Shown here: positions 49,107 through 63,420 of the stretch, piece by piece
Position numbering within the stretch: the stretch's first letter is position 1
Layout: every line of letters begins with the position of its first letter
Origin: Minisyncoccota bacterium
GTDB lineage: Bacteria; Patescibacteriota; Minisyncoccia; Phycocordibacterales; UBA9973
DNA: 64,000 bases
Assembly (NCBI GenBank): GCA_017991895.1
Contig: JAGOPR010000001.1
Span: 13,089-77,088 of the forward strand
Direction of reading: 5' to 3'
Translations under genes and position numbers: made by a program
Notes under the pieces: model-generated
What the model saw: the letters and a program-made list of their open reading frames with translations, nothing else
Told to the model about the DNA's origin: nothing
The model's database searches: none

Positions 49107-50924
49107 TTACTTCTTATAAATGATTATGACCGGTGGCGGTTTTAATTTTGCCTTTGGTTTATAAACATTTAAAGGTGGCGGTGCCGGATTATCTGAACCT
49201 CCTTCTGGTGGAATAATTTTTAATTTTCCATTCTCCAGAGTAACTTCAGGCAAATCAGATTTCGCATACTTTTCGTCCTCTTCATTTACATATTCCTTTT
49301 TGGTAACCTTACGAGCACCAATTTCTACATTATGTAGAGACTGGTTTACAAATGCTACGGAATCATACTTCCGCTTCAACTCATTAATCACAAAGGCAGT
49401 AGAATCTGCCGTGCGCTTTACCTGTGCGATAGAATCAGTTGTACGTTTAGAGCGTACAGAGTCTGCATAGGCGATTTCGCGAAGCGACTTATTTGTTGAA
49501 TCGGTAACTCGAACGAAAGCAAGTGAGTCAGCATACTTTTCATTTCGTATACTGTCAGCCATTCTTTGTTTAGCAATCTCATTCAAAAGTTGCTCGTTCT
49601 TTACTGCAAGTTGTCTATTAACTTCCGCTAACAATCTTGCATTAGCTTCAGCTTTTTTGGTGATAGAGTCATTCTTGCGTTTTTGCTCATACAACTGAGA
49701 CGCAAGTTGTTTTTCCCTATCTTTCTTTTCATTTACTTTCTGCAATGAATCCAAACGTTTTTGGTTCAACTGTGCAAGAGCTTCCGCTTTTGCATTTTTA
49801 ATTGAATCTAAACGAGCAGTTTTCAATAACTCAAGTAAATTTTTCTGTTTAGCTAATTCGTCCTTTTTCAAGGAGTCTCTAGTCTTAAATTGTTGATTAT
49901 ACCTTCGCGTTCTAGCGAGAGCCGAATCAACCTCGGCTAACAGATTCTGGTCATTTTGTTGCACTTCAGTTTTGTTCAACTCTAATGCTATTTTTTTAGC
50001 ATTTTTTATTGAATCAGCTACCCGCGCACGCTTTTCAGCATTCGCGATTTCCACGGCTAATGCATTCTTTGCGTTCTTTGTGGAGTCTGCAACAAATGCA
50101 ATGCGTGCCTGACGAACTGAATCGGCAGTTTTTACCTTTTGTGTAGAATCACGTACGAATGTGATCCTACGAACAACTGAATCTTTGTACTTAATTGAAT
50201 CGAATTGAGGTGCAAATGCTGGTTCTCCATCTTGAAGAATTTTTACAACAACCTTGCCATCTTTTTTCTTTTCCTCTGTGTACGCTAAAGCAGGAGTTGT
50301 AATTGTCTTTGCTGGGGTAACCAGCTTAGCAAGCTTTCTTCTGACTGATTCATAACCAATCATACTTTTGACTGTTACATCAAACGGGTCATCTTCAATT
50401 GTGGTGTTGTTCCCCTCAATTTTATAGCGACCAAAAAGCTTACTGTTTTTGATCTGATACCAGACCAACCCACCTGATACTTTTCCGTTATAGTACCCAA
50501 CTCGTAAATCGTAGTTGAATACATCCGGATTTTTTGTATTTAGGTAGATGACTTTTATCGAATCACCTGGGTTTGGCCTTGCACTTGGCGAGCACATCGT
50601 TATAAACATGCTATCCAAATGTTTTTGTCGTGTATCACCCATAAATCCATAGAATTTATAGGTGCTGTCGTATACTTCATACGTTTTAGATTCCTTGAGG
50701 TATTTTACGCACGGAAGCGTATCCTCAAAAAACCGTTTACACCATTCGGGCTCGTTGCCCAAATAAAAAGGCATGTTACGAACTTCTATATCCGGATCAT
50801 TAGACCGGCGTAAGTCGTAAGTGTAATAGAAGCCGTAATTTTGCTTCACTTGGCCAAATGAATTTTGGCAGAACACCAGGAACAACACTGGTATTAACGC
50901 GGATAATAAAAGTTGTTTTTTCAT
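49107..50924 (-). CDS. Secreted coiled-coil repeat protein
   Basis: Signal peptide; central tandem ADS(I/V)(K/R)NAK-type repeats; Pro-rich C-terminus. Confidence 0.45.
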   Translation of the reverse strand: MKKQLLLSALIPVLFLVFCQNSFGQVKQNYGFYYTYDLRRSNDPDIEVRNMPFYLGNEPEWCKRFFEDTLPCVKYLKESKTYEVYDSTYKFYGFMGDTRQKHLDSMFITMCSPSARPNPGDSIKVIYLNTKNPDVFNYDLRVGYYNGKVSGGLVWYQIKNSKLFGRYKIEGNNTTIEDDPFDVTVKSMIGYESVRRKLAKLVTPAKTITTPALAYTEEKKKDGKVVVKILQDGEPAFAPQFDSIKYKDSVVRRITFVRDSTQKVKTADSVRQARIAFVADSTKNAKNALAVEIANAEKRARVADSIKNAKKIALELNKTEVQQNDQNLLAEVDSALARTRRYNQQFKTRDSLKKDELAKQKNLLELLKTARLDSIKNAKAEALAQLNQKRLDSLQKVNEKKDREKQLASQLYEQKRKNDSITKKAEANARLLAEVNRQLAVKNEQLLNEIAKQRMADSIRNEKYADSLAFVRVTDSTNKSLREIAYADSVRSKRTTDSIAQVKRTADSTAFVINELKRKYDSVAFVNQSLHNVEIGARKVTKKEYVNEEDEKYAKSDLPEVTLENGKLKIIPPEGGSDNPAPPPLNVYKPKAKLKPPPVIIIYKK

Positions 50925-53333: not shown

Positions 53334-53648
53334 TTATTTACCCTGCATGCCTTGCATGAGTTCCATAAGTGGCGTCAAAGCCTCGCGGTGTTTTGCAATC
53401 TGGTCCTTATATTTAGACATAACGCCCATAGTGGCATACGCCTCAGGCATACCCGCCTTTGTTTTTGCTTCAATTTCTTTTTGGATGCTCTCAAAAAGAG
53501 TTTTAACTTCTTTATTCTCTTGAAGGACTTTTAGCTTTTCGGCAATAGATGGGTCGTTCGTGAGCTTTTCCGCCATCATCTCTGCCTGCTCCTTTGACGC
53601 GCCCTTTGCTTGTAATGTTTTCTTCAATAAAAATGATTTTAATCCCAT
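53334..53648 (-). CDS. Hypothetical protein
   Basis: ORF only. Confidence 0.35.
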   Translation of the reverse strand: MGLKSFLLKKTLQAKGASKEQAEMMAEKLTNDPSIAEKLKVLQENKEVKTLFESIQKEIEAKTKAGMPEAYATMGVMSKYKDQIAKHREALTPLMELMQGMQGK

Positions 53649-53756: not shown

Positions 53757-55052
53757 ATGCAGGAAACTTCACAACATGGTGTTCCACTACCACCAAAACG
53801 TATTTTGATTTTGGGAGGTGGGTTTGGTGGAGTCCGAACAGCGCTTGATCTCGCAGAATATGACCTACCGAATATAAAAATTACACTTATTTCGGACAAG
53901 CATCACTTCGAATACACTCCGTCACTATATAAAATTGCGACTGGCCACTCACCTGCCGAAACCTGTATTCCTCTTGGTGAAATTTTTTCTCACATGAAGA
54001 AGAAAAAGTTTGAATTCGTCGTAGACACTATTGTAGGAGGTTCTCTTTCAGAAAAGTATGTTACCGGAGCAAGCGGTTCACGCTACTCGTATGACTATGT
54101 CGTGCTTGGTCTCGGAGCAGAAACAGCATATTTTGGTATCTCTGGAATAAAAGAAAATTCATACGCTATAAAATCTGTCTCTTCCGCTCTCAAGCTTAAA
54201 AATCACCTTCATTACTTGTTCAACAATCATCATAAGTTAAGCAAAGGTGACTTAATGTCACAATTTCAATTTGTGATTGTGGGTGGAGGTCCCGCCGGAG
54301 TAGAGCTTGCTGGAGAAATTCGCCGATATGGAAGAAAGCTTGCAGGAGTACATGGTGTACCGAAGAAACTCGTAACTGTGGATATTATCCAAGCGGCGCC
54401 ACGTCTTCTTCCGACAATGCCTGAAGAAGTTTCTCGTCGAGCTCTAAATCGACTTAATGATCTTGGTGTAAATATTATATTAAACCGTTCGGTTTCTAGT
54501 GAGGATATGCAAGGCGTATATCTAAAAGATATTAAATTTAACGCTAAGACAATTGTATGGACTGCTGGAGTGCGTCCAAGTAGTATCTATGAAAAAATTT
54601 CAGGACTTACTCTCGAAAAAGGTGGTCGTATTGTAGTCGACGACAAAATGCGTGTACCGGAATTCCCCAATGCATTTGCTCTAGGTGACAGTGCTAGTAC
54701 TCCAAATGCCGGCACGGCGCAAACAGCAACTCACGATGGCGAATTTGTTGCTCATGCGATTGCTCGAACTATTCAAGGACACAGAGTGCCAAAATACACA
54801 TCCCACAAGTCTGCATACGTTGTACCTATCGGACAAGAATGGGCAGTATTTACAATCAACAAATTTGTTTTCTCCGGTGAAATTTTTTGGTGGCTACGAC
54901 GTTTTATTGATTTGAAATTCCTTTTTACGATACTACCTATAAGAAAAGCATTTACGGCTTGGCGATCTGGTGGAATTCTTAGTGAATCTTGCCCAACATG
55001 CCTGCAAGCACAAGATGAAAGCGAAGAAAAACCTCTATTCTTCAGGCACTAG
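53757..55052 (+). CDS. ndh: Type II NADH dehydrogenase / FAD-dependent pyridine nucleotide-disulfide oxidoreductase
   Basis: Two Rossmann GxGxxG motifs (ILGGGFGG, IVGGGPAG). Confidence 0.75.
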   Translation: MQETSQHGVPLPPKRILILGGGFGGVRTALDLAEYDLPNIKITLISDKHHFEYTPSLYKIATGHSPAETCIPLGEIFSHMKKKKFEFVVDTIVGGSLSEKYVTGASGSRYSYDYVVLGLGAETAYFGISGIKENSYAIKSVSSALKLKNHLHYLFNNHHKLSKGDLMSQFQFVIVGGGPAGVELAGEIRRYGRKLAGVHGVPKKLVTVDIIQAAPRLLPTMPEEVSRRALNRLNDLGVNIILNRSVSSEDMQGVYLKDIKFNAKTIVWTAGVRPSSIYEKISGLTLEKGGRIVVDDKMRVPEFPNAFALGDSASTPNAGTAQTATHDGEFVAHAIARTIQGHRVPKYTSHKSAYVVPIGQEWAVFTINKFVFSGEIFWWLRRFIDLKFLFTILPIRKAFTAWRSGGILSESCPTCLQAQDESEEKPLFFRH

Positions 55053-55082: not shown

Positions 55083-55784
55083 TTACTTTATCTTTTTTAG
55101 TATTTTTGGAATCAGCGAGAAGTCTTTTTTTAAAGTATCTCTCATTCCCCCATTATAGAGTGCTGATGCCGGATGATATAGCGGCAAAAAATATTCTGTT
55201 TCTATAACTCCCGAAACTGAAGCATTTCTTTGTTGCTCACTCGTTTTCTCCTGCGGAGTAGGATTACTACACCTTAGTCGCAAGCCTCGCTCGCGCCTCG
55301 AACTGCATTCAGTTTCGGGGGTTATAGGAGTAGTTTTAAATTTTTTGTGAATAAGCTTGCCGTGCACTTCGGAAATTTTAAGCTCGGGAAAAAAATTATT
55401 CATTGAGTGCCTGCCTAGAAAAACTATTAACTTCGGTTTTATTAAATTAAGTTCTTCGTAGAGCCACGGGGCGCAAGCCTCTTTCTCGCTTGGCATAGGG
55501 TCGCGATTGTCTGGCGGACGATACTTCACAATATTTGTAATATAAACATCTTCCCTTTTCATTCCAATACCATCAAGCATCTCTGAAAGAAACTTACCCG
55601 CTGAGCCGATAAAAGGGACACCTTCCTCATCCTCTTTTTTTCCTGGGGCTTCGCCAATAAATACAATCGAAGCTGTAGCGGGTCCGTCTCCAAAAACCGG
55701 CTGAGTAGCCGTAGCCTTTAAAACACAGGAATTTTCGTTTGCCCATTTAGTATGAAGCTCTATTAGTTCTTCCTGCTTCGTCAT
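55083..55784 (-). CDS. Uracil-DNA glycosylase, family 4
   Basis: GEAPG motif and HPS-like C-terminal motif. Confidence 0.8.
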   Translation of the reverse strand: MTKQEELIELHTKWANENSCVLKATATQPVFGDGPATASIVFIGEAPGKKEDEEGVPFIGSAGKFLSEMLDGIGMKREDVYITNIVKYRPPDNRDPMPSEKEACAPWLYEELNLIKPKLIVFLGRHSMNNFFPELKISEVHGKLIHKKFKTTPITPETECSSRRERGLRLRCSNPTPQEKTSEQQRNASVSGVIETEYFLPLYHPASALYNGGMRDTLKKDFSLIPKILKKIK

Positions 55785-55855
55785 TTGGGTAGTATACTGT
55801 AACTGTATTACTTGTTAAAGCTCTAAGCTAAAAGCTGACAGCTATAAGCTATTTT

Positions 55856-56059
55856 ATGAATAAACACTATGTTTGTAACGGTGGGTGCAACGGAGTTTCA
55901 GATACAGAAGGAGTATGCGGTGCGGAAACTTGTGCAAAACACGGACAGCCACTTCTTGAATGCTCTTGCCAAGATGGCATGCATGAAGGAATTGTAACCC
56001 CATGTGTTGATTGCGGAAATTTGTGCAAGGAAAATAACAGCGAGGGTTGTAAGGCTTAG
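55856..56059 (+). CDS. Small cysteine-rich protein (67 aa, 10 Cys)
   Basis: ORF with a TATAAG box 6 nt upstream and a strong terminator at 56082-56118. Confidence 0.5.
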   Translation: MNKHYVCNGGCNGVSDTEGVCGAETCAKHGQPLLECSCQDGMHEGIVTPCVDCGNLCKENNSEGCKA

Positions 56060-56081
56060 AAGTAAACCAACGCGGAGTAAA

Positions 56082-56118
56082 AAAACCAGCAAGGTCCGAC
56101 CTTGCTGGTTTTTTTACT
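56082..56118. terminator. Bidirectional terminator
   Basis: aaaaaaccagcaaggtc cg accttgctggttttttt. Confidence 0.8.
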
Positions 56119-57634
56119 CTATTATTCTAATCTCATTTGCTATTTTTTCCGTTTCAGAAAAACCTGATTCATTTTTAGCATTTTTATTTATATAAACTTT
56201 GTACAGAACGTAAGAGGCCCCAAGCAAACCAGTAACACCAACAGCCAAAGATACATACAAAGGAATCTCGCTTTTCTCCACGGGTTTACTATTTTCCGCC
56301 GAAGCGACACTTGCCTGCATTTCTATTGGCATAATCGGAGCTGATACTTCTTTTACAGTAATCTTTGTCGAAGGCGAGGATACAGTGGGTGTACTAAAAG
56401 CGACTACTGATTTTTCGATTTTGGGTAACGTAGGATACGTAGAAACAATACTTCCTGATGGCAACACAAGCTGTAACCTAGCAAAGTCGCCGTCAGTGAA
56501 TCCTGTTAAGCTCTTTGATAAAAAAATTGACTTGCCCGAGATAATAAATGTTCCATACGGGATAATAAATTTTTTTGTTCCGCTCGAATTTATTATCCCC
56601 CAATCTGAGATATCTGCTTCACTGTCTGAAGGATTTTTTAATTCAATTGTACCGATATCACTCACTGATGAAATAAAAACATGTGGCTCCACGATTTCAA
56701 TAACTTGTCGTATTTTAATATCTGGTTCACGCAAATATGGGTTAGTTTTATATGTAAACATTGCCAAATATGTACCAGAAAATTCATACTCATGCTTAAA
56801 CGGCTCAAAATAATCCAATTTTTTTACTGTGCCATCTCCAAAAGAAAAATAGAATTCCCCACGCTGTCTAACTTCTCCGGCAAGTCCCGTAACTTTTACT
56901 GATACATCAAAAGGAATACCTGCTACTCCGGTTATAGGCATAGATAGCTCTGCCTTCATTTTTGGAGGCTCATATGCCTTTGGTGTAGTCACGGTCGTAG
57001 TAGACCCTGTCCCACCTCCTTCAGTCGTCGTACCTCCGCCGCCTCCACCGCCACTACCCGTATCCCCTCCACCTCCTCCAGATGATCCACCGCTGTTGCT
57101 AACTCCCGGGGTAGGAACTGCCCCTACCCAAGATGAGCCGACAAGCTGAAGTGAGTTGCCGTCGCCAGCACCTCCTACAGTATTTGTATATGAAACAGTG
57201 TCTACAATATTGCCTGCATCATCAATAATTTTTACATTACCACTCGTATTTCCTAGACTCATAGATGTATCTATAACTGTACCTGAATATCCTGAGTGAT
57301 CTGTCAGAAAAACGTCAGCATTGGAAGCTATAACTGCATACCCATTTACTGGTATTACCATTGTGCCTCGCGTTGCGGTATCTGCAAGTAAATGATTGCT
57401 TCCATCATTAAAACGCCATGTATCCCCGCTTCCGCCGGAAATTGTTACAGCTGTCGTTCCAGTATTCTGAATTTCTATCCACTCGTGATCAGAATCAGAT
57501 CCCGGCGCATCATAAAAAATCTCGCTGATGATGATACCGCCAGAAGCAAGCGTTGTTCCGCGTACGGAAAAAAATAATATGAGAATGAGTAGTAAACTGT
57601 AAACTATTCCGCGATTATTTATTCCACACCACAT
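56114..57634 (-). CDS. Secreted lamin-tail-domain (LTD) protein with Gly-rich linker and C-terminal TM anchor
   Basis: LTD signature IIISEIFYDAPGSDSDHEWIEIQNTG; poly-G/S/T linker; start trimmed to the Met that precedes the signal peptide (alternative start at 57766 would overlap the upstream ATPase). Confidence 0.6.
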   Translation of the reverse strand: MWCGINNRGIVYSLLLILILFFSVRGTTLASGGIIISEIFYDAPGSDSDHEWIEIQNTGTTAVTISGGSGDTWRFNDGSNHLLADTATRGTMVIPVNGYAVIASNADVFLTDHSGYSGTVIDTSMSLGNTSGNVKIIDDAGNIVDTVSYTNTVGGAGDGNSLQLVGSSWVGAVPTPGVSNSGGSSGGGGGDTGSGGGGGGGTTTEGGGTGSTTTVTTPKAYEPPKMKAELSMPITGVAGIPFDVSVKVTGLAGEVRQRGEFYFSFGDGTVKKLDYFEPFKHEYEFSGTYLAMFTYKTNPYLREPDIKIRQVIEIVEPHVFISSVSDIGTIELKNPSDSEADISDWGIINSSGTKKFIIPYGTFIISGKSIFLSKSLTGFTDGDFARLQLVLPSGSIVSTYPTLPKIEKSVVAFSTPTVSSPSTKITVKEVSAPIMPIEMQASVASAENSKPVEKSEIPLYVSLAVGVTGLLGASYVLYKVYINKNAKNESGFSETEKIANEIRIIE

Positions 57635-57644
57635 AGACAGTATA

Positions 57645-59990
57645 TTATTCTGACAATACGTTTCGTAGCACCTCTTCAGGAATTTCTCGTATTTTCTTTT
57701 CGCCAACTGGTTTCTCTTGTTCTGGTTTTTTTTCTTCTTGTATTGGAGGAACTGGTGTGGGTTCAATTTTTACCGGTTCAGGAATTTTTTTCTCTTCTAC
57801 TTTTTGTACATCTCCGACTTTGGGCGCACTATTTGTAGCTTTTGCAATTGCACTAGCGAGCGCTGACATACGTTCTTCTGAAGCCTGCTTTGATGCGAAC
57901 ACTTTTTGAGTAGGAACTACAGATGATTCTGCTTCTGGTTTTTTAAGTGAAGAAAGAGAAATTGTTTGCTTTTCTGGTTCTGGATTTCCGTTTTCTGGTT
58001 TCGTAACGTTAGAATTCTTTTCGTCTTTAATATTTGCACTTTGCATGTTTTTTGAGAGAGCATCTCCAAGAGCTGATTTCAAAATACTCTGAAGACCTTC
58101 GTGATCAGGAGTCGCACGCTCCTTTGCCGGTCGAATATTTTTTGGTCTTGGTTCAGAAACTGGCGTAGATGATGGAGCAGGTACTGGCGAAACAGGAGCT
58201 TGCTGAGTATGAGTCGCCATTGGTTTTGCCACTGACGCAACAGGTCGAACTTGTTGAGGTGGGACACTAGGGATCGAGACCGTAGGACTAGGTCGTGGAG
58301 TGGTAACCGGAGGCGGAACAGTTACGGGCCTCGACATTTGCGGTCGAGACACGAACGCTGGTGGAACTGGTTTCTTCAAAACAGCTGGACTTCGAGTCGG
58401 AGAAAGTTTTGCTGCGTCAGAATCTCCTTCAGGTAAATATTCGATACCGAGACCAGCAAGAGCTGAGTACGATTGTGGCTCGAGAGCCCGAGCACGTGAA
58501 GTACCTTTGACCGGTTTCATTTCCCCGCTCTTAATTTTCGCAATACAGTCCTTACAATACACAGGTCGGCCTTCTTCCGGCTCAAATGGAACAGTAGTTT
58601 CTTTTCCACAAGAAGAACATACGGCTTTAAATTTGCCTGTCTCTTCAAGACCAACAAGCATTCCACTCCAATCATTGATTTCTTTTTCAACAATTTCTTT
58701 CGGACGAGCGTATAGCTTTCGAGACATTTCTATAATCTCTTGAGCAACAGTACTTTCAACGGGGATTTTAAATGGTGTGAGTGTTTTTGCAGAAAAGGGT
58801 CGGCTTGTTACCCCATCTACCATAAGCTTTAGATAGATTGTGTAGTTTGGAAGGTTCACCATGTCTTGCGGTGTAAATTCCGGCTCAAATTCTTGCTCAA
58901 GATATTCGGCATCTGCGGCACCGATGCGGAAAATGATTATCGTTCCAACGTTACCGAAAACAGCATCACGAACTGCCTCAGAATCTTTTGTGACAAGCTG
59001 AGCAATGTATTGGTGAGCGAGAGTGAGGTTTAGGCGGTATTTACGAGCTTCAGAGAGAATACTCGCAAATGCGTCTGTAACGAAGTTTTGGAATTCGTCC
59101 ACATACAAATAGAAATCTTTACGGTCATCTTCAGGAATACGCACGCGCTCCATGGCGGCGAGCTGGAGCTTGGTAATAATCATACCTCCCAAGAGTGCTG
59201 AGTTGTCTTCACCGATACGTCCCTTTGAAACGTTCACGAGAAATATTTTTCCAGTGTTCATCAAACTAAAAAGATCGAGTGTGGATTTTGATTGTCCGAC
59301 AACATTACGCACGATAGAAGTTGATAGGAATTGTCCAACTTTGTTTTGAATCGGAGCGATAGCTTCGTTACGATATTGATCACGCCAGTTTTCATATTCA
59401 TGAACCCAGAAGGCTTTAATCACTGGATCTTTCAAATTATTGATGACTACCTGACGGTAGTCTTTGTCCACAAGAAGACGCGGAATACCAAGGAGTGTAG
59501 AGCCAGGCGTATCAACAAGCGCCAAGATCGCGTTGTTCAAAATATATTCCATACGAGCAGACCACGCGTTTGCCCAAATCTTTGTAAAAATTCCCATCAG
59601 ACCGGACGCCACAAGATGCTTGTAGCGTGGATCGTCGAGCTGAAGCACATTGAAACCGACGTGGTAATCCGCGTCAGCTGGGTTGAAATATATAACATCT
59701 TTTGCACGGTGAGCAGGGATTGTCGCAAGAATTGATTCGACAAGTTCTCCGTGAGGGTCGACAACGCAAACACCTTCGCCGTTCCAGACGTTTTGAACAA
59801 TCATATTTGCTAGAAGCGCAGATTTTCCGGAGCCGGATTTACCCAACAGGTACATGTGTTGCCGGCGATCTTTTCTTTTGATGCCGAAAACTTGTTCGTT
59901 GGCTCGGAAATTCGTCTTTGCCAAATACGTAAGATTTTTATTAAAGGCTATCCCGTCAGGGAGAAAGTCCATATGCCGTATATTATACAA
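57645..59990 (-). CDS. FtsK/HerA-superfamily ATPase (TraD/VirD4/AAA_10-like) with C-terminal zinc ribbon and Pro-rich disordered tail (paralog A)
   Basis: Walker A GKSGSGKS, VVDPHGE, Walker B YLYVDEFQNF; CSSCGKE...YCKDC; long P/S/T/V-rich tail. Confidence 0.6.
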   Translation of the reverse strand: MYNIRHMDFLPDGIAFNKNLTYLAKTNFRANEQVFGIKRKDRRQHMYLLGKSGSGKSALLANMIVQNVWNGEGVCVVDPHGELVESILATIPAHRAKDVIYFNPADADYHVGFNVLQLDDPRYKHLVASGLMGIFTKIWANAWSARMEYILNNAILALVDTPGSTLLGIPRLLVDKDYRQVVINNLKDPVIKAFWVHEYENWRDQYRNEAIAPIQNKVGQFLSTSIVRNVVGQSKSTLDLFSLMNTGKIFLVNVSKGRIGEDNSALLGGMIITKLQLAAMERVRIPEDDRKDFYLYVDEFQNFVTDAFASILSEARKYRLNLTLAHQYIAQLVTKDSEAVRDAVFGNVGTIIIFRIGAADAEYLEQEFEPEFTPQDMVNLPNYTIYLKLMVDGVTSRPFSAKTLTPFKIPVESTVAQEIIEMSRKLYARPKEIVEKEINDWSGMLVGLEETGKFKAVCSSCGKETTVPFEPEEGRPVYCKDCIAKIKSGEMKPVKGTSRARALEPQSYSALAGLGIEYLPEGDSDAAKLSPTRSPAVLKKPVPPAFVSRPQMSRPVTVPPPVTTPRPSPTVSIPSVPPQQVRPVASVAKPMATHTQQAPVSPVPAPSSTPVSEPRPKNIRPAKERATPDHEGLQSILKSALGDALSKNMQSANIKDEKNSNVTKPENGNPEPEKQTISLSSLKKPEAESSVVPTQKVFASKQASEERMSALASAIAKATNSAPKVGDVQKVEEKKIPEPVKIEPTPVPPIQEEKKPEQEKPVGEKKIREIPEEVLRNVLSE

Positions 59991-60026: not shown

Positions 60027-61727
60027 TTATAGTACCTCTTTTTGGTAACAGGATTCGCAGTAGACCACCTCAGGGCGTCCTTTTTCATATGGCGTTCTGA
60101 TATCTTTTTTGCAGTTATCACAAGTACGATCAAAGAGTTTAGTTGGCAAAAGCATTTTGTAGCGTTCTTTATGGCGCTCGGCTCCTGCTACTCGCGGAAT
60201 CGGCAAACCTGCTTGGCGATAGAAAGAAAGTTCAGCTGGCACAATACGATACGCTTTTCCAGAAACCTCACACTTTAAAATCATTTTTAGTATATCGTCG
60301 CCGACATCTTTGATATCGTCCGGAATCGTATAGTCAGAAAATTCGTAGTGAGTATCAGAAACATAGTCGCTCCATTTATATCCTTGTGCGAGCGCTTCTT
60401 CTTTTGAAAGCGGAAAAATATCGGGAGCAGTTGTTTCATTGTATCCATAGGAAGAAAATTCTGTTGGAAAAAATTCTCCATATTTATACACTCGCCCCAT
60501 CTTGTCCACATATGGCATATCCTGCATGTGTTTTTTAATTCTAGGTAAAAGCTCGTTATATTCTTCTTTCGTATATTTTTTATTAAGAATCGTATATTCT
60601 GCACCACGAACACAAACGCATCCAAAACAATTACTAACACTTCCTACCATTGTCGAATACTCGACAGTATTGATAGTCACTTTCTTAAGTGGGTCATTCG
60701 AAATGCAGAAAAGCAAAAATTTTGAATCATAGACTCCCCCACTGTGAGCACATTCATACGCGAGCTCGGCAGCGCCAAGGCAACTACAATCATACAAGTC
60801 ACGTGCCCACCCAGTAATAAAGAGATTTTTAGAATTTTCAATCTTTGTGCATTCCCAGACATTATGAGAATTCTTTGCTTCCGAAACTGCGTTACCCGTA
60901 GTGTCTACGGATTTAAAAATAGTATTTTCGCGGTGTGGAGAATTATTCCAAATAGGAACAATCTGCTCCTTCCACCATGAAAGTCCACGGTGAGATGATA
61001 TTGGATGTTCGGACAAAAATTTCTGATATTCCTCTTTTGTATACTGCTCGTTAAAAATACAGTATTGCTTGTTGCGCAGTCCGGCACAACCAATAACATT
61101 GCTACAATTGCGACAGTCATATGAGAGGACTGTATTTAAGGAATCGTGGCATTCATAGGAAAAGTGTGTGAAATAATCTCTCTCGCAGTGCACATTATTT
61201 GAAGAATGATCAGAGTTAAATATCCAATAATTATCGAAGCAGTTTTTGCACTGAACTCCGTATGTACAATATGCACAGTCTTCGTTGTACATCCCTCCTA
61301 CATTCATATAACAATTTTTACTATCATTCTCTTGATTTATCCATTCACTATTTATTGCATTTGAATTCAGTATTGATATTTGTGGAACAGCAAGGAAAAG
61401 CTCGAGCCATTGCTCGAAAAATGGTCGTAAAAAATCATACTCTTTACCGTATGAACACGGGTCCCATTTGTCGCTCCACCAGCATTTTGAACAATACATG
61501 GGGAAAGTCTTATCTGGAGATACACGAGAAACAACACTCGTGCCACACAAATCACAATCACGCTTGTAGAAATTACGTTCGTTACGAAAGGCAAGCCTGC
61601 GCTGAAAACGGCAGTCCGCACAAAACGTTGGAGGTGGAACATTTACCTTCTGGTAAAAGTCAAAGTCCTCTGGCTCAATCGTAAAGTCATTCTTACAGTT
61701 CTGGCAATTTCGGGTTTCGTTTTGCAT
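60027..61727 (-). CDS. Large cysteine-rich multi-zinc-ribbon protein (566 aa), paralog 1
   Basis: N- and C-terminal CxxC..FY..P..CxxCR..Y..CxxC double zinc ribbons; two internal Cys modules each ending in YCIxNxQYTKEEY. Confidence 0.55.
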   Translation of the reverse strand: MQNETRNCQNCKNDFTIEPEDFDFYQKVNVPPPTFCADCRFQRRLAFRNERNFYKRDCDLCGTSVVSRVSPDKTFPMYCSKCWWSDKWDPCSYGKEYDFLRPFFEQWLELFLAVPQISILNSNAINSEWINQENDSKNCYMNVGGMYNEDCAYCTYGVQCKNCFDNYWIFNSDHSSNNVHCERDYFTHFSYECHDSLNTVLSYDCRNCSNVIGCAGLRNKQYCIFNEQYTKEEYQKFLSEHPISSHRGLSWWKEQIVPIWNNSPHRENTIFKSVDTTGNAVSEAKNSHNVWECTKIENSKNLFITGWARDLYDCSCLGAAELAYECAHSGGVYDSKFLLFCISNDPLKKVTINTVEYSTMVGSVSNCFGCVCVRGAEYTILNKKYTKEEYNELLPRIKKHMQDMPYVDKMGRVYKYGEFFPTEFSSYGYNETTAPDIFPLSKEEALAQGYKWSDYVSDTHYEFSDYTIPDDIKDVGDDILKMILKCEVSGKAYRIVPAELSFYRQAGLPIPRVAGAERHKERYKMLLPTKLFDRTCDNCKKDIRTPYEKGRPEVVYCESCYQKEVL

Positions 61728-61764: not shown

Positions 61765-63420
61765 CTAGTTAATATTCTGCTTATAACATGCCTCGCAGGC
61801 AATCTTCGTATATCCCCATTCCTTTGGGTAGTACGCACCCACCTCATTATTGCAGTAAATGCAATTATAAGATTCCGCTTTCCACGGAGCCATCGTGCGC
61901 ATACGGTTTTTTGTACGGACATCAAAATGGACACGAGGAAGCGCAATTCCCTTTCGTGAAAGGAATTTGAATTCTTCAGGTGCGATGTTGAATCGCCAGC
62001 CAGTTTCTGGACAAATAAGTGCCTGCTTAGAGATGGTTTCGTCTACTTCCGTAATACTATTTGGCAATTCGCTCGTTGGAATACCGTCTACTTGGCTCTC
62101 AACGTTGTCATTCCAGTACCCGCCTCTAGCAAGTACAAATTCCTTTGTGATTTCTGGCATATAAATCGAAGCCGTAGTGAGATTATAATCACAAAGCCCC
62201 ATGTTATACGGCAAAAACTGCCCATATTCACCATGTGCTTTCATGTCAGCGATTATCTTTTCACGAAGTGCCTCATATTCTTCTTTTGTATATTGCCTAT
62301 TTAAAATACAATATTTTTTCTTTCGAAGCCCAACACATCCAAAACAATATTCAACTTCAAGACACTCATCGAGATATTCTGAATAGCGCCCTTCGCTCCA
62401 TGAGGAATAATGAAGTCCGTACCCTCCAGTGCAACAACTGTCATTTCCGCACACCTCGACTTTCCATGAACCAAGAAGATCAATGCAGTCCTTTGCTTCA
62501 CGTCCACGAAGACAATTCACACAATTTTCTGATTCTTCCCATCCGAAAACGTTCTGGCAATTGTTGCAATCTGCAAGGTATGTTCCTTTCGATGCATAGG
62601 TGTTTAGTGTGAAATTCTCTCGATGCACTGTCTCTTCTCGCAAGATTTCAACATAGCGTGCCTTTAGCTTTTCAAGTCCTGCGTATGAACTCATGTCATA
62701 TTCTTTAAGCTTTTCAAAATATTCTTCTTTTGTGTACTGCACATTTTCGATACAATATTGCGCACCGCGGAGATTCCAACACATCGTACAATTGCTGCAG
62801 TTTCGGCAGTCGTACAAAAATCGTGAGTTCATACAGTCACGGCAATTTCTTGAAAAATAAAGTTCGAAGGAGTGAAAGGAATAGGTACACTCGTAGCAAT
62901 TGTCTAGGGTAAATGCATGGGAGATATCCATCGAATCTTTCGCATCAAAAGAACGATATCCATACAAAAGATTTTCGGAACGAGCAACTGAGCGCGTGAG
63001 GTAACAATTTTTAGAATCCCAGACATCGTCACACCAATCGCAAAGTAAGTTGTTTGTTCCTTGTTGGTGCGGACGTGGTACTTTTTCTTGCAATTCTTTT
63101 AGCTGGTCAAAAAACGGTCGTGACTCGTCATAGTCTTGCCCAAAATCCATGGCATCCCATGCATCGCTCCACCACTCTTTGGAATGGTAAATCGGATAGC
63201 GCACGCTCGCCGGAAGCATCGTTATAAGGCTTTCTCCTGAAAGTGACGATGTAGCTTTACGAAATTTACCGAATGGCCAAAATGCAAACTGCTGTGCCAT
63301 ACGGCAAGAAAAACAATTGAGTGGTATTTCAATTGCTACTTTTTCGTACAAAAGAAACTCAGGGGGTGTGATAGTAAAATCTTTCTTACAGCTCTGGCAT
63401 TGTTTCGTTTCTGTTTGCAT
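61765..63420 (-). CDS. Large cysteine-rich multi-zinc-ribbon protein (551 aa), paralog 2
   Basis: Same architecture and conserved YTKEEY modules as 60027..61727. Confidence 0.55.
   Translation of the reverse strand: MQTETKQCQSCKKDFTITPPEFLLYEKVAIEIPLNCFSCRMAQQFAFWPFGKFRKATSSLSGESLITMLPASVRYPIYHSKEWWSDAWDAMDFGQDYDESRPFFDQLKELQEKVPRPHQQGTNNLLCDWCDDVWDSKNCYLTRSVARSENLLYGYRSFDAKDSMDISHAFTLDNCYECTYSFHSFELYFSRNCRDCMNSRFLYDCRNCSNCTMCWNLRGAQYCIENVQYTKEEYFEKLKEYDMSSYAGLEKLKARYVEILREETVHRENFTLNTYASKGTYLADCNNCQNVFGWEESENCVNCLRGREAKDCIDLLGSWKVEVCGNDSCCTGGYGLHYSSWSEGRYSEYLDECLEVEYCFGCVGLRKKKYCILNRQYTKEEYEALREKIIADMKAHGEYGQFLPYNMGLCDYNLTTASIYMPEITKEFVLARGGYWNDNVESQVDGIPTSELPNSITEVDETISKQALICPETGWRFNIAPEEFKFLSRKGIALPRVHFDVRTKNRMRTMAPWKAESYNCIYCNNEVGAYYPKEWGYTKIACEACYKQNIN

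Follow-up and report, generated by a model that had tools for sequence, protein, structure and literature searches.

The 67-residue protein encoded in the window (the whole 64,000-nucleotide stretch of DNA analysed here, from a Minisyncoccota genome) is best read as a small acidic protein of the cytoplasm that binds metal, probably zinc, at two core sites, and at a third site in the ten-cysteine variant that it represents, a reading to which we assign a probability of roughly 0.6. It belongs to a family defined by the signature H-x2-C-x3-C-x9-C-x4-C-x9-C-x-C-x4-H, which is absent from Pfam and NCBIfam and is uncurated and unnamed. The message for the window itself is modest: the peptide stands outside the neighbouring Cys-rich/ATPase system, does not look like a natural-product precursor and provides no evidence for a new system. 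The features discussed below are collected in Table 1.

Table 1 Features of the 67-residue gene and its surroundings, in window coordinates.
Feature	Coordinates	Strand	Description or basis
Coding sequence of the 67-aa protein, stop codon included	55856..56059	+	Open-reading frame; 10 Cys
Family core, residues 4–43	55865..55984	+	H4-x2-C7-x3-C11-x9-C21-x4-C26-x9-C36-x-C38-x4-H43
C-terminal module of the ten-Cys subfamily, residues 50–65	56003..56050	+	C50-x2-C53-G-x-L-C57-x7-C65
Peptide of the 67-aa protein suited to metaproteome matching			HYVCNGGCNGVSDTEGVCGAETCAK
TATAAG, −10-like hexamer, 7 nt 5′ of the ATG	55843..55848	+	Read from the sequence
Perfect 20-bp hairpin, putative terminator	56075..56119	both	GAGTAAAAAAACCAGCAAGG-TCCGA-CCTTGCTGGTTTTTTTACTC; arms 56075–56094 and 56100–56119; terminator scan and RNA fold
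Promoter-like TTAACA-16-TATACT of the divergent UDG gene	55791..55818	−	Promoter scan, 10/12 matches
Intergenic region between the 67-aa and UDG genes	55785..55855		71 bp
Uracil-DNA glycosylase (UDG) gene	55083..55784	−	ATG at 55784
In-frame insertion in the UDG gene	55209..55334	−	42 residues, TPITPETECSSRRERGLRLRCSNPTPQEKTSEQQRNASVSGV
Pyr_redox_2 flavoprotein gene	53757..55052	+	FAD/NAD(P)H oxidoreductase
104-aa protein gene	53334..53648	−	No Pfam match
605-aa protein gene	49107..50924	−	No Pfam match on record
LTD-domain open-reading frame	56114..57766	−	550 aa, TTG start; stop codon at 56114–56116
TraG/VirD4/HerA-like ATPase gene	57645..59990	−	
First Cys-rich paralogue	60027..61727	−	~560 aa, no Pfam match
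Second Cys-rich paralogue	61765..63420	−	~560 aa, no Pfam match

The open-reading frame is a real, conserved gene. Its deposited record (GenBank MBP6884267.1, locus tag KBC17_00400, contig JAHZTO010000157.1 of a Candidatus Pacebacteria MAG) carries the name ‘hypothetical protein’ and the identical protein is present on three assemblies, whilst the window holds a single copy and no paralogue. The original prediction, a 67-residue peptide with ten cysteines and with neither signal peptide nor transmembrane helix, was borne out in reading frame and translation exactly as quoted: its cysteine content is 15%, compared with 1.1% for the long open-reading frames of the window, its pI is acidic at 4.84, no signal peptide was found in it, and it lacks any hydrophobic stretch (maximum Kyte–Doolittle 15-residue mean of 0.49). 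The four closest homologues (61–68% identity in the alignment) retain every one of the ten cysteines as well as H4 and H43. Among five orthologous genes pS had reached 0.75–1.0 (saturated) whilst pN was only 0.17–0.33, which shows purifying selection on the protein. A spurious reading frame without a protein product, suggested by the short length and the weak promoter consensus in the window, therefore has next to no probability: hundreds of homologues keep the ligand positions invariant, the amino acids are conserved although synonymous sites are saturated, and terminators lie directly 3′ of the stop codon in orthologues. In our view conservation is enough to refute this alternative, even if it falls short of directly proving expression.

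An absence of homologues, which the original prediction had named among the observations that would refute it, was not borne out: they are plentiful. A profile search over 1.84 billion cluster representatives (clusters at 50% identity) returned 436 matches at E ≤ 1e-3 and 74 at E ≤ 1e-10, most of which cover just query residues 3–46, and the window protein itself matches the family profile at E = 1.4e-24. The family consensus across the core is H-Y-[IV]-C-[TN]-G-G-C-x-G-V-S-x2-P-G-x-C-x4-C-x-K-x3-P-L-x2-C-x-C-x-D-G-x-H, of which a further form is HY[IV]CTGGCxGVS..PGxCQAxxCxK. Of 152 representatives, 137 share exactly the same cysteine spacing (3/9/4/9/1), both histidines are in register in 159 of 163 sequences, and the domain starts 2–3 residues past the initiator methionine in 71 of 82. 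The window protein matches the signature exactly, within 2–4 residues of its N-terminus. Besides the cysteines, the conserved core residues include Y5, G9, G10, P32 and L33, and no methionine is conserved in the core. Typical members are 50–65 residues long with a variable acidic tail, are usually encoded by free-standing genes of 50–75 codons, and most carry six cysteines only.

The four additional cysteines of the window protein define a subfamily with a C-terminal module of the pattern C-x2-C-G-x-[LI]-C-x(3-7)-C, in which all four are invariant across 22 sequences at a spacing of 2/3/3–7. The module occurs in about 12–13 of 155 representatives, in a ranking that is biased toward the ten-cysteine type, and in further loci from the genome scan described below; it frequently precedes the motif E-x-E-x-[FY]-K-x-E-L. 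Within this subfamily the window protein has the longest last spacer (seven residues) and is without the terminal EL motif.

For the distribution of the family we scanned one genome per species, across 185,579 species, with the degenerate peptide pattern HY[VI]C[TN]GGCxG, which yielded 153 confirmed loci in as many species-level genomes. The best 80 of the 153 loci come from many Patescibacteria/CPR lineages, among them Paceibacterota, Nomura-, Kaiser-, Lipton-, Harrison-, Lloyd-, Azam-, Specht-, Taylor-, Doudna-, Kerfeld-, Andersen-, Roizman- and Gottesmanbacteria and Microgenomates. Several loci come from DPANN archaeal bins whose contigs are clearly archaeal by gene content: two contigs (L045 and L083) encode a proteasome beta subunit and aCPSF1, another a split RpoB and RpoH (L048), another GatD and a CDC48/PAN-type ATPase (L077), and another prefoldin and FtsY (L041). 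The presence of family genes on archaeal contigs means that the family is common to CPR bacteria and DPANN archaea, and so crosses domains. Three third-party bins with the family bear the putative labels Gammaproteobacteria or Methanosarcinales.

None of this family has been curated. The window protein had no Pfam match at E ≤ 10, and searches of Pfam, NCBIfam, PADLOC and PHROGs with this protein and with 141 or 36 family members produced nothing consistent, PADLOC returning no matches and PHROGs chance-level matches only (E about 0.9). Sequence searches of the PDB with 5- and 141-sequence profiles gave a chance match to ribosomal S12e or nothing. All members are named ‘hypothetical’ or ‘uncharacterized’, the one named fusion taking its name from the partner domain, and literature searches on the motif and on small Cys-rich CPR proteins brought up no relevant work. 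Micro-proteins made of a single Cys/His metal-binding domain with a knuckle fold are a familiar kind; what is new is the ‘HYxC...CxC’ family with its signature, its ten-cysteine elaboration and its distribution over CPR and DPANN, of which we found no description in the literature searched.

Structure prediction is consistent with a compact metal-binding core. With five sequences the AlphaFold (AF2) model was too poor for use (pLDDT 57), whilst with 141 sequences the mean pLDDT rose to 73, with values of 79, 87, 91 and 78 for the ten-residue blocks of residues 1–40 and 44–62 for the tail; confidence on the C-terminal module (residues 50–65) was low, at 50–62. The 141-sequence model places short strands at residues 4–6, 14–15, 20–21 and 34–36. 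The fold matched by the core of the model is a rubredoxin-knuckle metal-binding domain, the metal-binding core of LpCopA, with which we aligned it by eye (family side HYVC-NGGC-NGVSDTEGVC-GAETC-AKHGQPLLE). The predicted core resembles that of LpCopA, a likeness of fold and working and not of membership. Foldseek searches gave no matches in the PDB and only non-significant ones among viral models, mostly to zinc fingers (FmdB CxxC_CxxC_SSSS, Ogr/Delta, RING).

Six cysteines and two histidines in a fixed register, with four more cysteines in the variant, make metal binding the most plausible predicted chemistry, and eight invariant core ligands suggest two tetrahedral sites. We propose that residues 4–43 would form a compact, beta-rich mini-domain held by these two sites, most likely with Zn(II). 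The first would consist of C7, C11, C21 and C26, placed on a pair of turns that recall the knuckles of a zinc ribbon or rubredoxin, with the difference that the knuckles of the family are non-canonical, C-x3-C and C-x4-C in place of C-x2-C. The second would consist of H4, C36, C38 and H43, meeting where the first and last beta-strands pair; a Cys2His2 site is plausible here since H4 lies on strand 1 and C36 and C38 at the end of the pairing strand, followed by H43. In the ten-cysteine subfamily a third, Cys4 site may be formed by C50, C53, C57 and C65. We infer these groupings from the strand pairing in the model and from the spacing, with which the zinc-ribbon class is compatible. Zn(II) is the default expectation for predicted sites of this kind in a presumably cytoplasmic protein; Fe, Cu(I) and Cd are also possible.

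The spacing of the cysteines had earlier been likened to that of metallothioneins, and a protein that stores or detoxifies metal, its Cys and His residues binding several Zn, Cu or Cd ions in a thiolate cluster and buffering metal in a cell without other homeostasis systems, would agree with an acidic protein of 15% cysteine, with a nearest fold that is a heavy-metal (Cu+/Ag+) binding domain, and with the gain of four extra cysteines in the subfamily. This likeness did not survive comparison with the family as a whole. Neither PF02069 nor any metal-storage family matched among 141 members, and none matched in NCBIfam; the core has only six cysteines per 40 residues, in a fixed register and amid many conserved non-ligand residues; the conserved neighbours include neither a metal transporter nor a metal regulator; and a structural or interaction domain would better explain why various enzymes carry the domain at their N-terminus. 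The conserved non-cysteine residues and the fixed spacing point to a folded mini-domain rather than a polymer of cysteine clusters, and we consider a metallothionein-like store distinctly unlikely.

Upstream of the gene, the TATAAG hexamer lacks both the final conserved T of a −10 box and a TG extension, no usable −35 element lies 16–18 nt from it, and the consensus promoter scan made no call on this strand 5′ of the gene, the missing T and the missing −35 element accounting for its silence. The hexamer is therefore a candidate, weak promoter for a leaderless transcript. The original prediction had recognised the hexamer correctly and placed it one nucleotide too close to the ATG (6 rather than 7 nt). 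Downstream, the hairpin consists of 20 perfect pairs (22 in RNAfold), with a free energy of −33.6 kcal/mol and a z-score of −9.6, and none of 200 shuffles was as stable. The strong terminator predicted earlier was thus upheld, with a stem longer than the 17 bp first given, and so was the combination of a promoter-proximal start with a terminator. The GC core of the hairpin is flanked by a run of seven A on its 5′ side and of seven T on its 3′ side, and the convergent LTD gene has its stop codon inside it, which together give it the shape of a bidirectional intrinsic terminator common to both convergent genes. A GC hairpin with a T-run is likewise found just past the stop codon in orthologous loci.

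Among 80 family loci, a TATAAT-like box lies exactly 6 nt before the ATG in 15 (ten of them perfect), and a Shine–Dalgarno-like sequence at −18 to −5 occurs in just six. The TATAAT-N6-ATG arrangement and the rarity of Shine–Dalgarno sequences suggest that many family genes are expressed from leaderless mRNAs. A leaderless transcript is plausible for the window gene as well; in its closest orthologues the box is found at 3–4 nt or is unrecognisable, and the distance is not conserved. Leaderless-type starts seem common in these genomes in general (L013–L020, L027, L034, L060 and L070), and the window UDG gene has the same layout within the shared intergenic region, with a promoter-like element that stops 6 nt short of the ATG.

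The gene is head-to-head with the UDG gene, with which it shares the intergenic region, and tail-to-tail with the LTD, TraG-like ATPase and Cys-rich cluster, so that the earlier description of it as divergent from the Cys-rich/ATPase locus had the orientation wrong: it is convergent there and divergent from the UDG gene. To look beyond the window we called open-reading frames in 81 loci and clustered all neighbours. No partner or operon was found family-wide and no non-family cluster occurred in more than 11 loci, the recurrent neighbours being a flavoprotein, UDG, the LTD protein, YchF and a small protein, in 8–11 of the 81 loci each. The commonest neighbour is a cluster of proteins of ~75–130 residues, no more than a few genes away from the family gene in 11 of the 81 loci, to which the 104-aa protein of the window belongs.

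In the window the order is Pyr_redox_2 flavoprotein (+), UDG (−), family gene (+), LTD protein (−) and TraG/VirD4-like ATPase (−). Blocks of this type are confined to about ten of the 81 loci (Pyr_redox_2 and UDG in ten each, LTD in eight, the ATPase in five) and also hold six-cysteine members (L081 and, lacking UDG, L060). The LTD/ATPase portion of the block has moved elsewhere in L006, whilst in the ten-cysteine clade L013–L020 the block is lost and the upstream neighbour is a different gene of ~370 codons, which we guess to encode an S1-domain protein. Adjacency to the Cys-rich/ATPase locus thus represents local gene order and not a family-wide functional link, and we rejected the tie to that locus that the original prediction had implied.

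Several features of this neighbourhood deserve description in their own right. The UDG gene carries an in-frame insertion that is absent from ten orthologues, its DNA having terminal inverted repeats of ~24 nt and forming a long hairpin (DNA free energy −29.2, z-score −5.5); there is no second copy in the window, and it resembles a short palindromic or MITE-like element that entered the gene without breaking the frame. The LTD open-reading frame overlaps that of the upstream ATPase by ~120 nt, and as the deposited product has 506 residues the 5′ extension is probably untranslated; the protein has a long Gly/Ser/Thr-rich linker between the LTD domain and a C-terminal transmembrane segment. The two paralogous Cys-rich proteins contain many CxxC pairs and are flanked by two TraG/VirD4/HerA-like ATPase genes, the second an upstream gene of 490 codons; the block is also conserved in L007 and appears to be an uncharacterised system specific to Paceibacteria-type (CPR) genomes. 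Further away, the 605-aa protein has an N-terminal signal-like segment and a long, repetitive Lys/Asp/Ser-rich coiled region (ADS[IV][KR]NAK-type units).

The proximity of the flavoprotein raises the alternative that the peptide is a rubredoxin-like Fe(Cys)4 electron carrier for the FAD/NAD(P)H oxidoreductase. Rubredoxin reductases belong to Pyr_redox_2, a gene of this type lies within one or two genes of the family gene in ten of the 81 loci (directly upstream and on the same strand in L060), and the predicted fold contains a rubredoxin-type knuckle. However, the association is limited to those ten loci, and in eight of them, the window included, a UDG gene on the opposite strand lies between the pair. 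The knuckles are C-x3-C and C-x4-C and not C-x2-C-G or C-P-x-C-G, no rubredoxin Pfam model matched among 141 members, and the Pyr_redox_2 protein of the window begins with the dinucleotide-binding motif GGGFGG, a start typical of type-II NADH dehydrogenases. An electron carrier of this kind is quite improbable.

The neighbourhoods also bear on the suggestion, made in the original prediction, that the peptide is the core of an unmodified precursor, and more broadly on a RiPP precursor or a secreted disulfide-rich peptide (bacteriocin- or toxin-like) with cysteines modified or oxidised after translation. Small size, many cysteines and a free-standing gene with its own expression signals are what such a peptide would show. 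The remark that maturation enzymes are not obvious in the window held for the flanks and was extended by the wider comparison, since no maturation enzyme, transporter or metal regulator recurs in the 81 loci; in particular, no radical-SAM enzyme, YcaO, lanthipeptide synthetase, protease or ABC exporter is conserved there or present in the window flanks. Nor is there a signal peptide, the database searches of PADLOC and PHROGs lend nothing to this alternative, and the two invariant histidines fit metal ligation instead. The N-terminal cysteine domain is conserved and the acidic tail variable, the reverse of leader and core logic, and the domain is fused to cytoplasmic enzymes. A precursor or secreted peptide is, on this evidence, highly improbable.

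The fusions themselves are informative. The domain is joined, usually at the N-terminus, to DJ-1/PfpI, an AAA_33/KTI12-type kinase, glyoxalase/PhnB, pterin-4a-carbinolamine dehydratase, tRNA_bind, DUF2196, DUF7282 and small transmembrane domains. Joining unrelated partners in this way is what a self-contained structural or interaction module would do. We return to the small metal-binding protein, for which the most likely role is that of a metal-dependent (structural, sensing or buffering) interaction module rather than an enzyme or a secreted peptide. As no functional partner was found, a physiological role is a guess, the candidates being a scaffold for the acidic interaction tail, a metal sensor or a buffer.

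A broader reading, unlikely as it stands, is that the family consists of abundantly expressed, leaderless micro-proteins specific to ultra-small, host-dependent CPR and DPANN organisms and exchanged across domains, either dedicated to sensing or chaperoning soft metals (Zn/Cu) or acting as metal-dependent adaptors, with the ten-cysteine Paceibacteria variant as a three-site elaboration. If true, this would add a new metal-handling or regulatory component in organisms without most known homeostasis systems. Apart from this broader reading, should the family prove to be a metal sensor, buffer or interaction adaptor, it would fill a gap on metal handling in minimal cells. Small proteins are routinely ignored when candidate-phyla genomes are annotated; a definition of the family would allow thousands of ‘hypothetical proteins’ to receive an annotation and would offer structural biology a compact new metal-binding module.

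Among known systems, the nearest in predicted fold is HMBD (PF19335). This domain makes up the N-terminal heavy-metal-binding core in P1B-ATPases, Legionella LpCopA (PDB 8ovl) for instance, and in SilB/CusB-type adaptors. We rejected membership of this family: PF19335 matched none of 141 members, whilst the LpCopA segment, as a positive control, matched it at 5e-16, and hhalign probabilities were 0.2% with LpCopA and 0.6% with an alignment of 30 HMBD sequences. The family has neither the Y-x-C-P-M-H-P-E (CPMHPE) and C-P-x-C-G-M motifs nor methionine ligands for Cu+/Ag+, and has instead C-x3-C and C-x4-C knuckles and a predicted second H/C-x-C/H site; its members are free-standing and acidic and not attached to metal efflux proteins (P1B-ATPase, CusB/SilB), and no transporter recurs among the neighbours in the 81 loci or occurs in the window flanks. 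Rubredoxin (PF00301) is likewise a mini-protein with four cysteines in two knuckles, but its knuckle spacing and aromatic core are not kept in the family, which has the predicted second His/Cys site in addition. The bacterial metallothioneins BmtA/SmtA (PF02069) are small Cys/His-rich metal-binding proteins with a zinc-finger-like fold element and are similar in this respect; the family differs in having no match to their model, a lower cysteine density, no Cys-x-Cys cluster repeats and, mostly, six cysteines. A further parallel is with the zinc-ribbon and rubredoxin-knuckle micro-proteins, such as the C(P)XCG zinc-finger micro-proteins of haloarchaea, which are under 80 residues long, consist essentially of one Cys-ligated metal domain and are often free-standing. 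From the C(P)XCG type the family differs in its six cysteines and two histidines in the register 3/9/4/9/1/4, without CPxCG, and from zinc-ribbon micro-proteins in general in that no Pfam zinc-ribbon model matched consistently and in being centred on CPR and DPANN.
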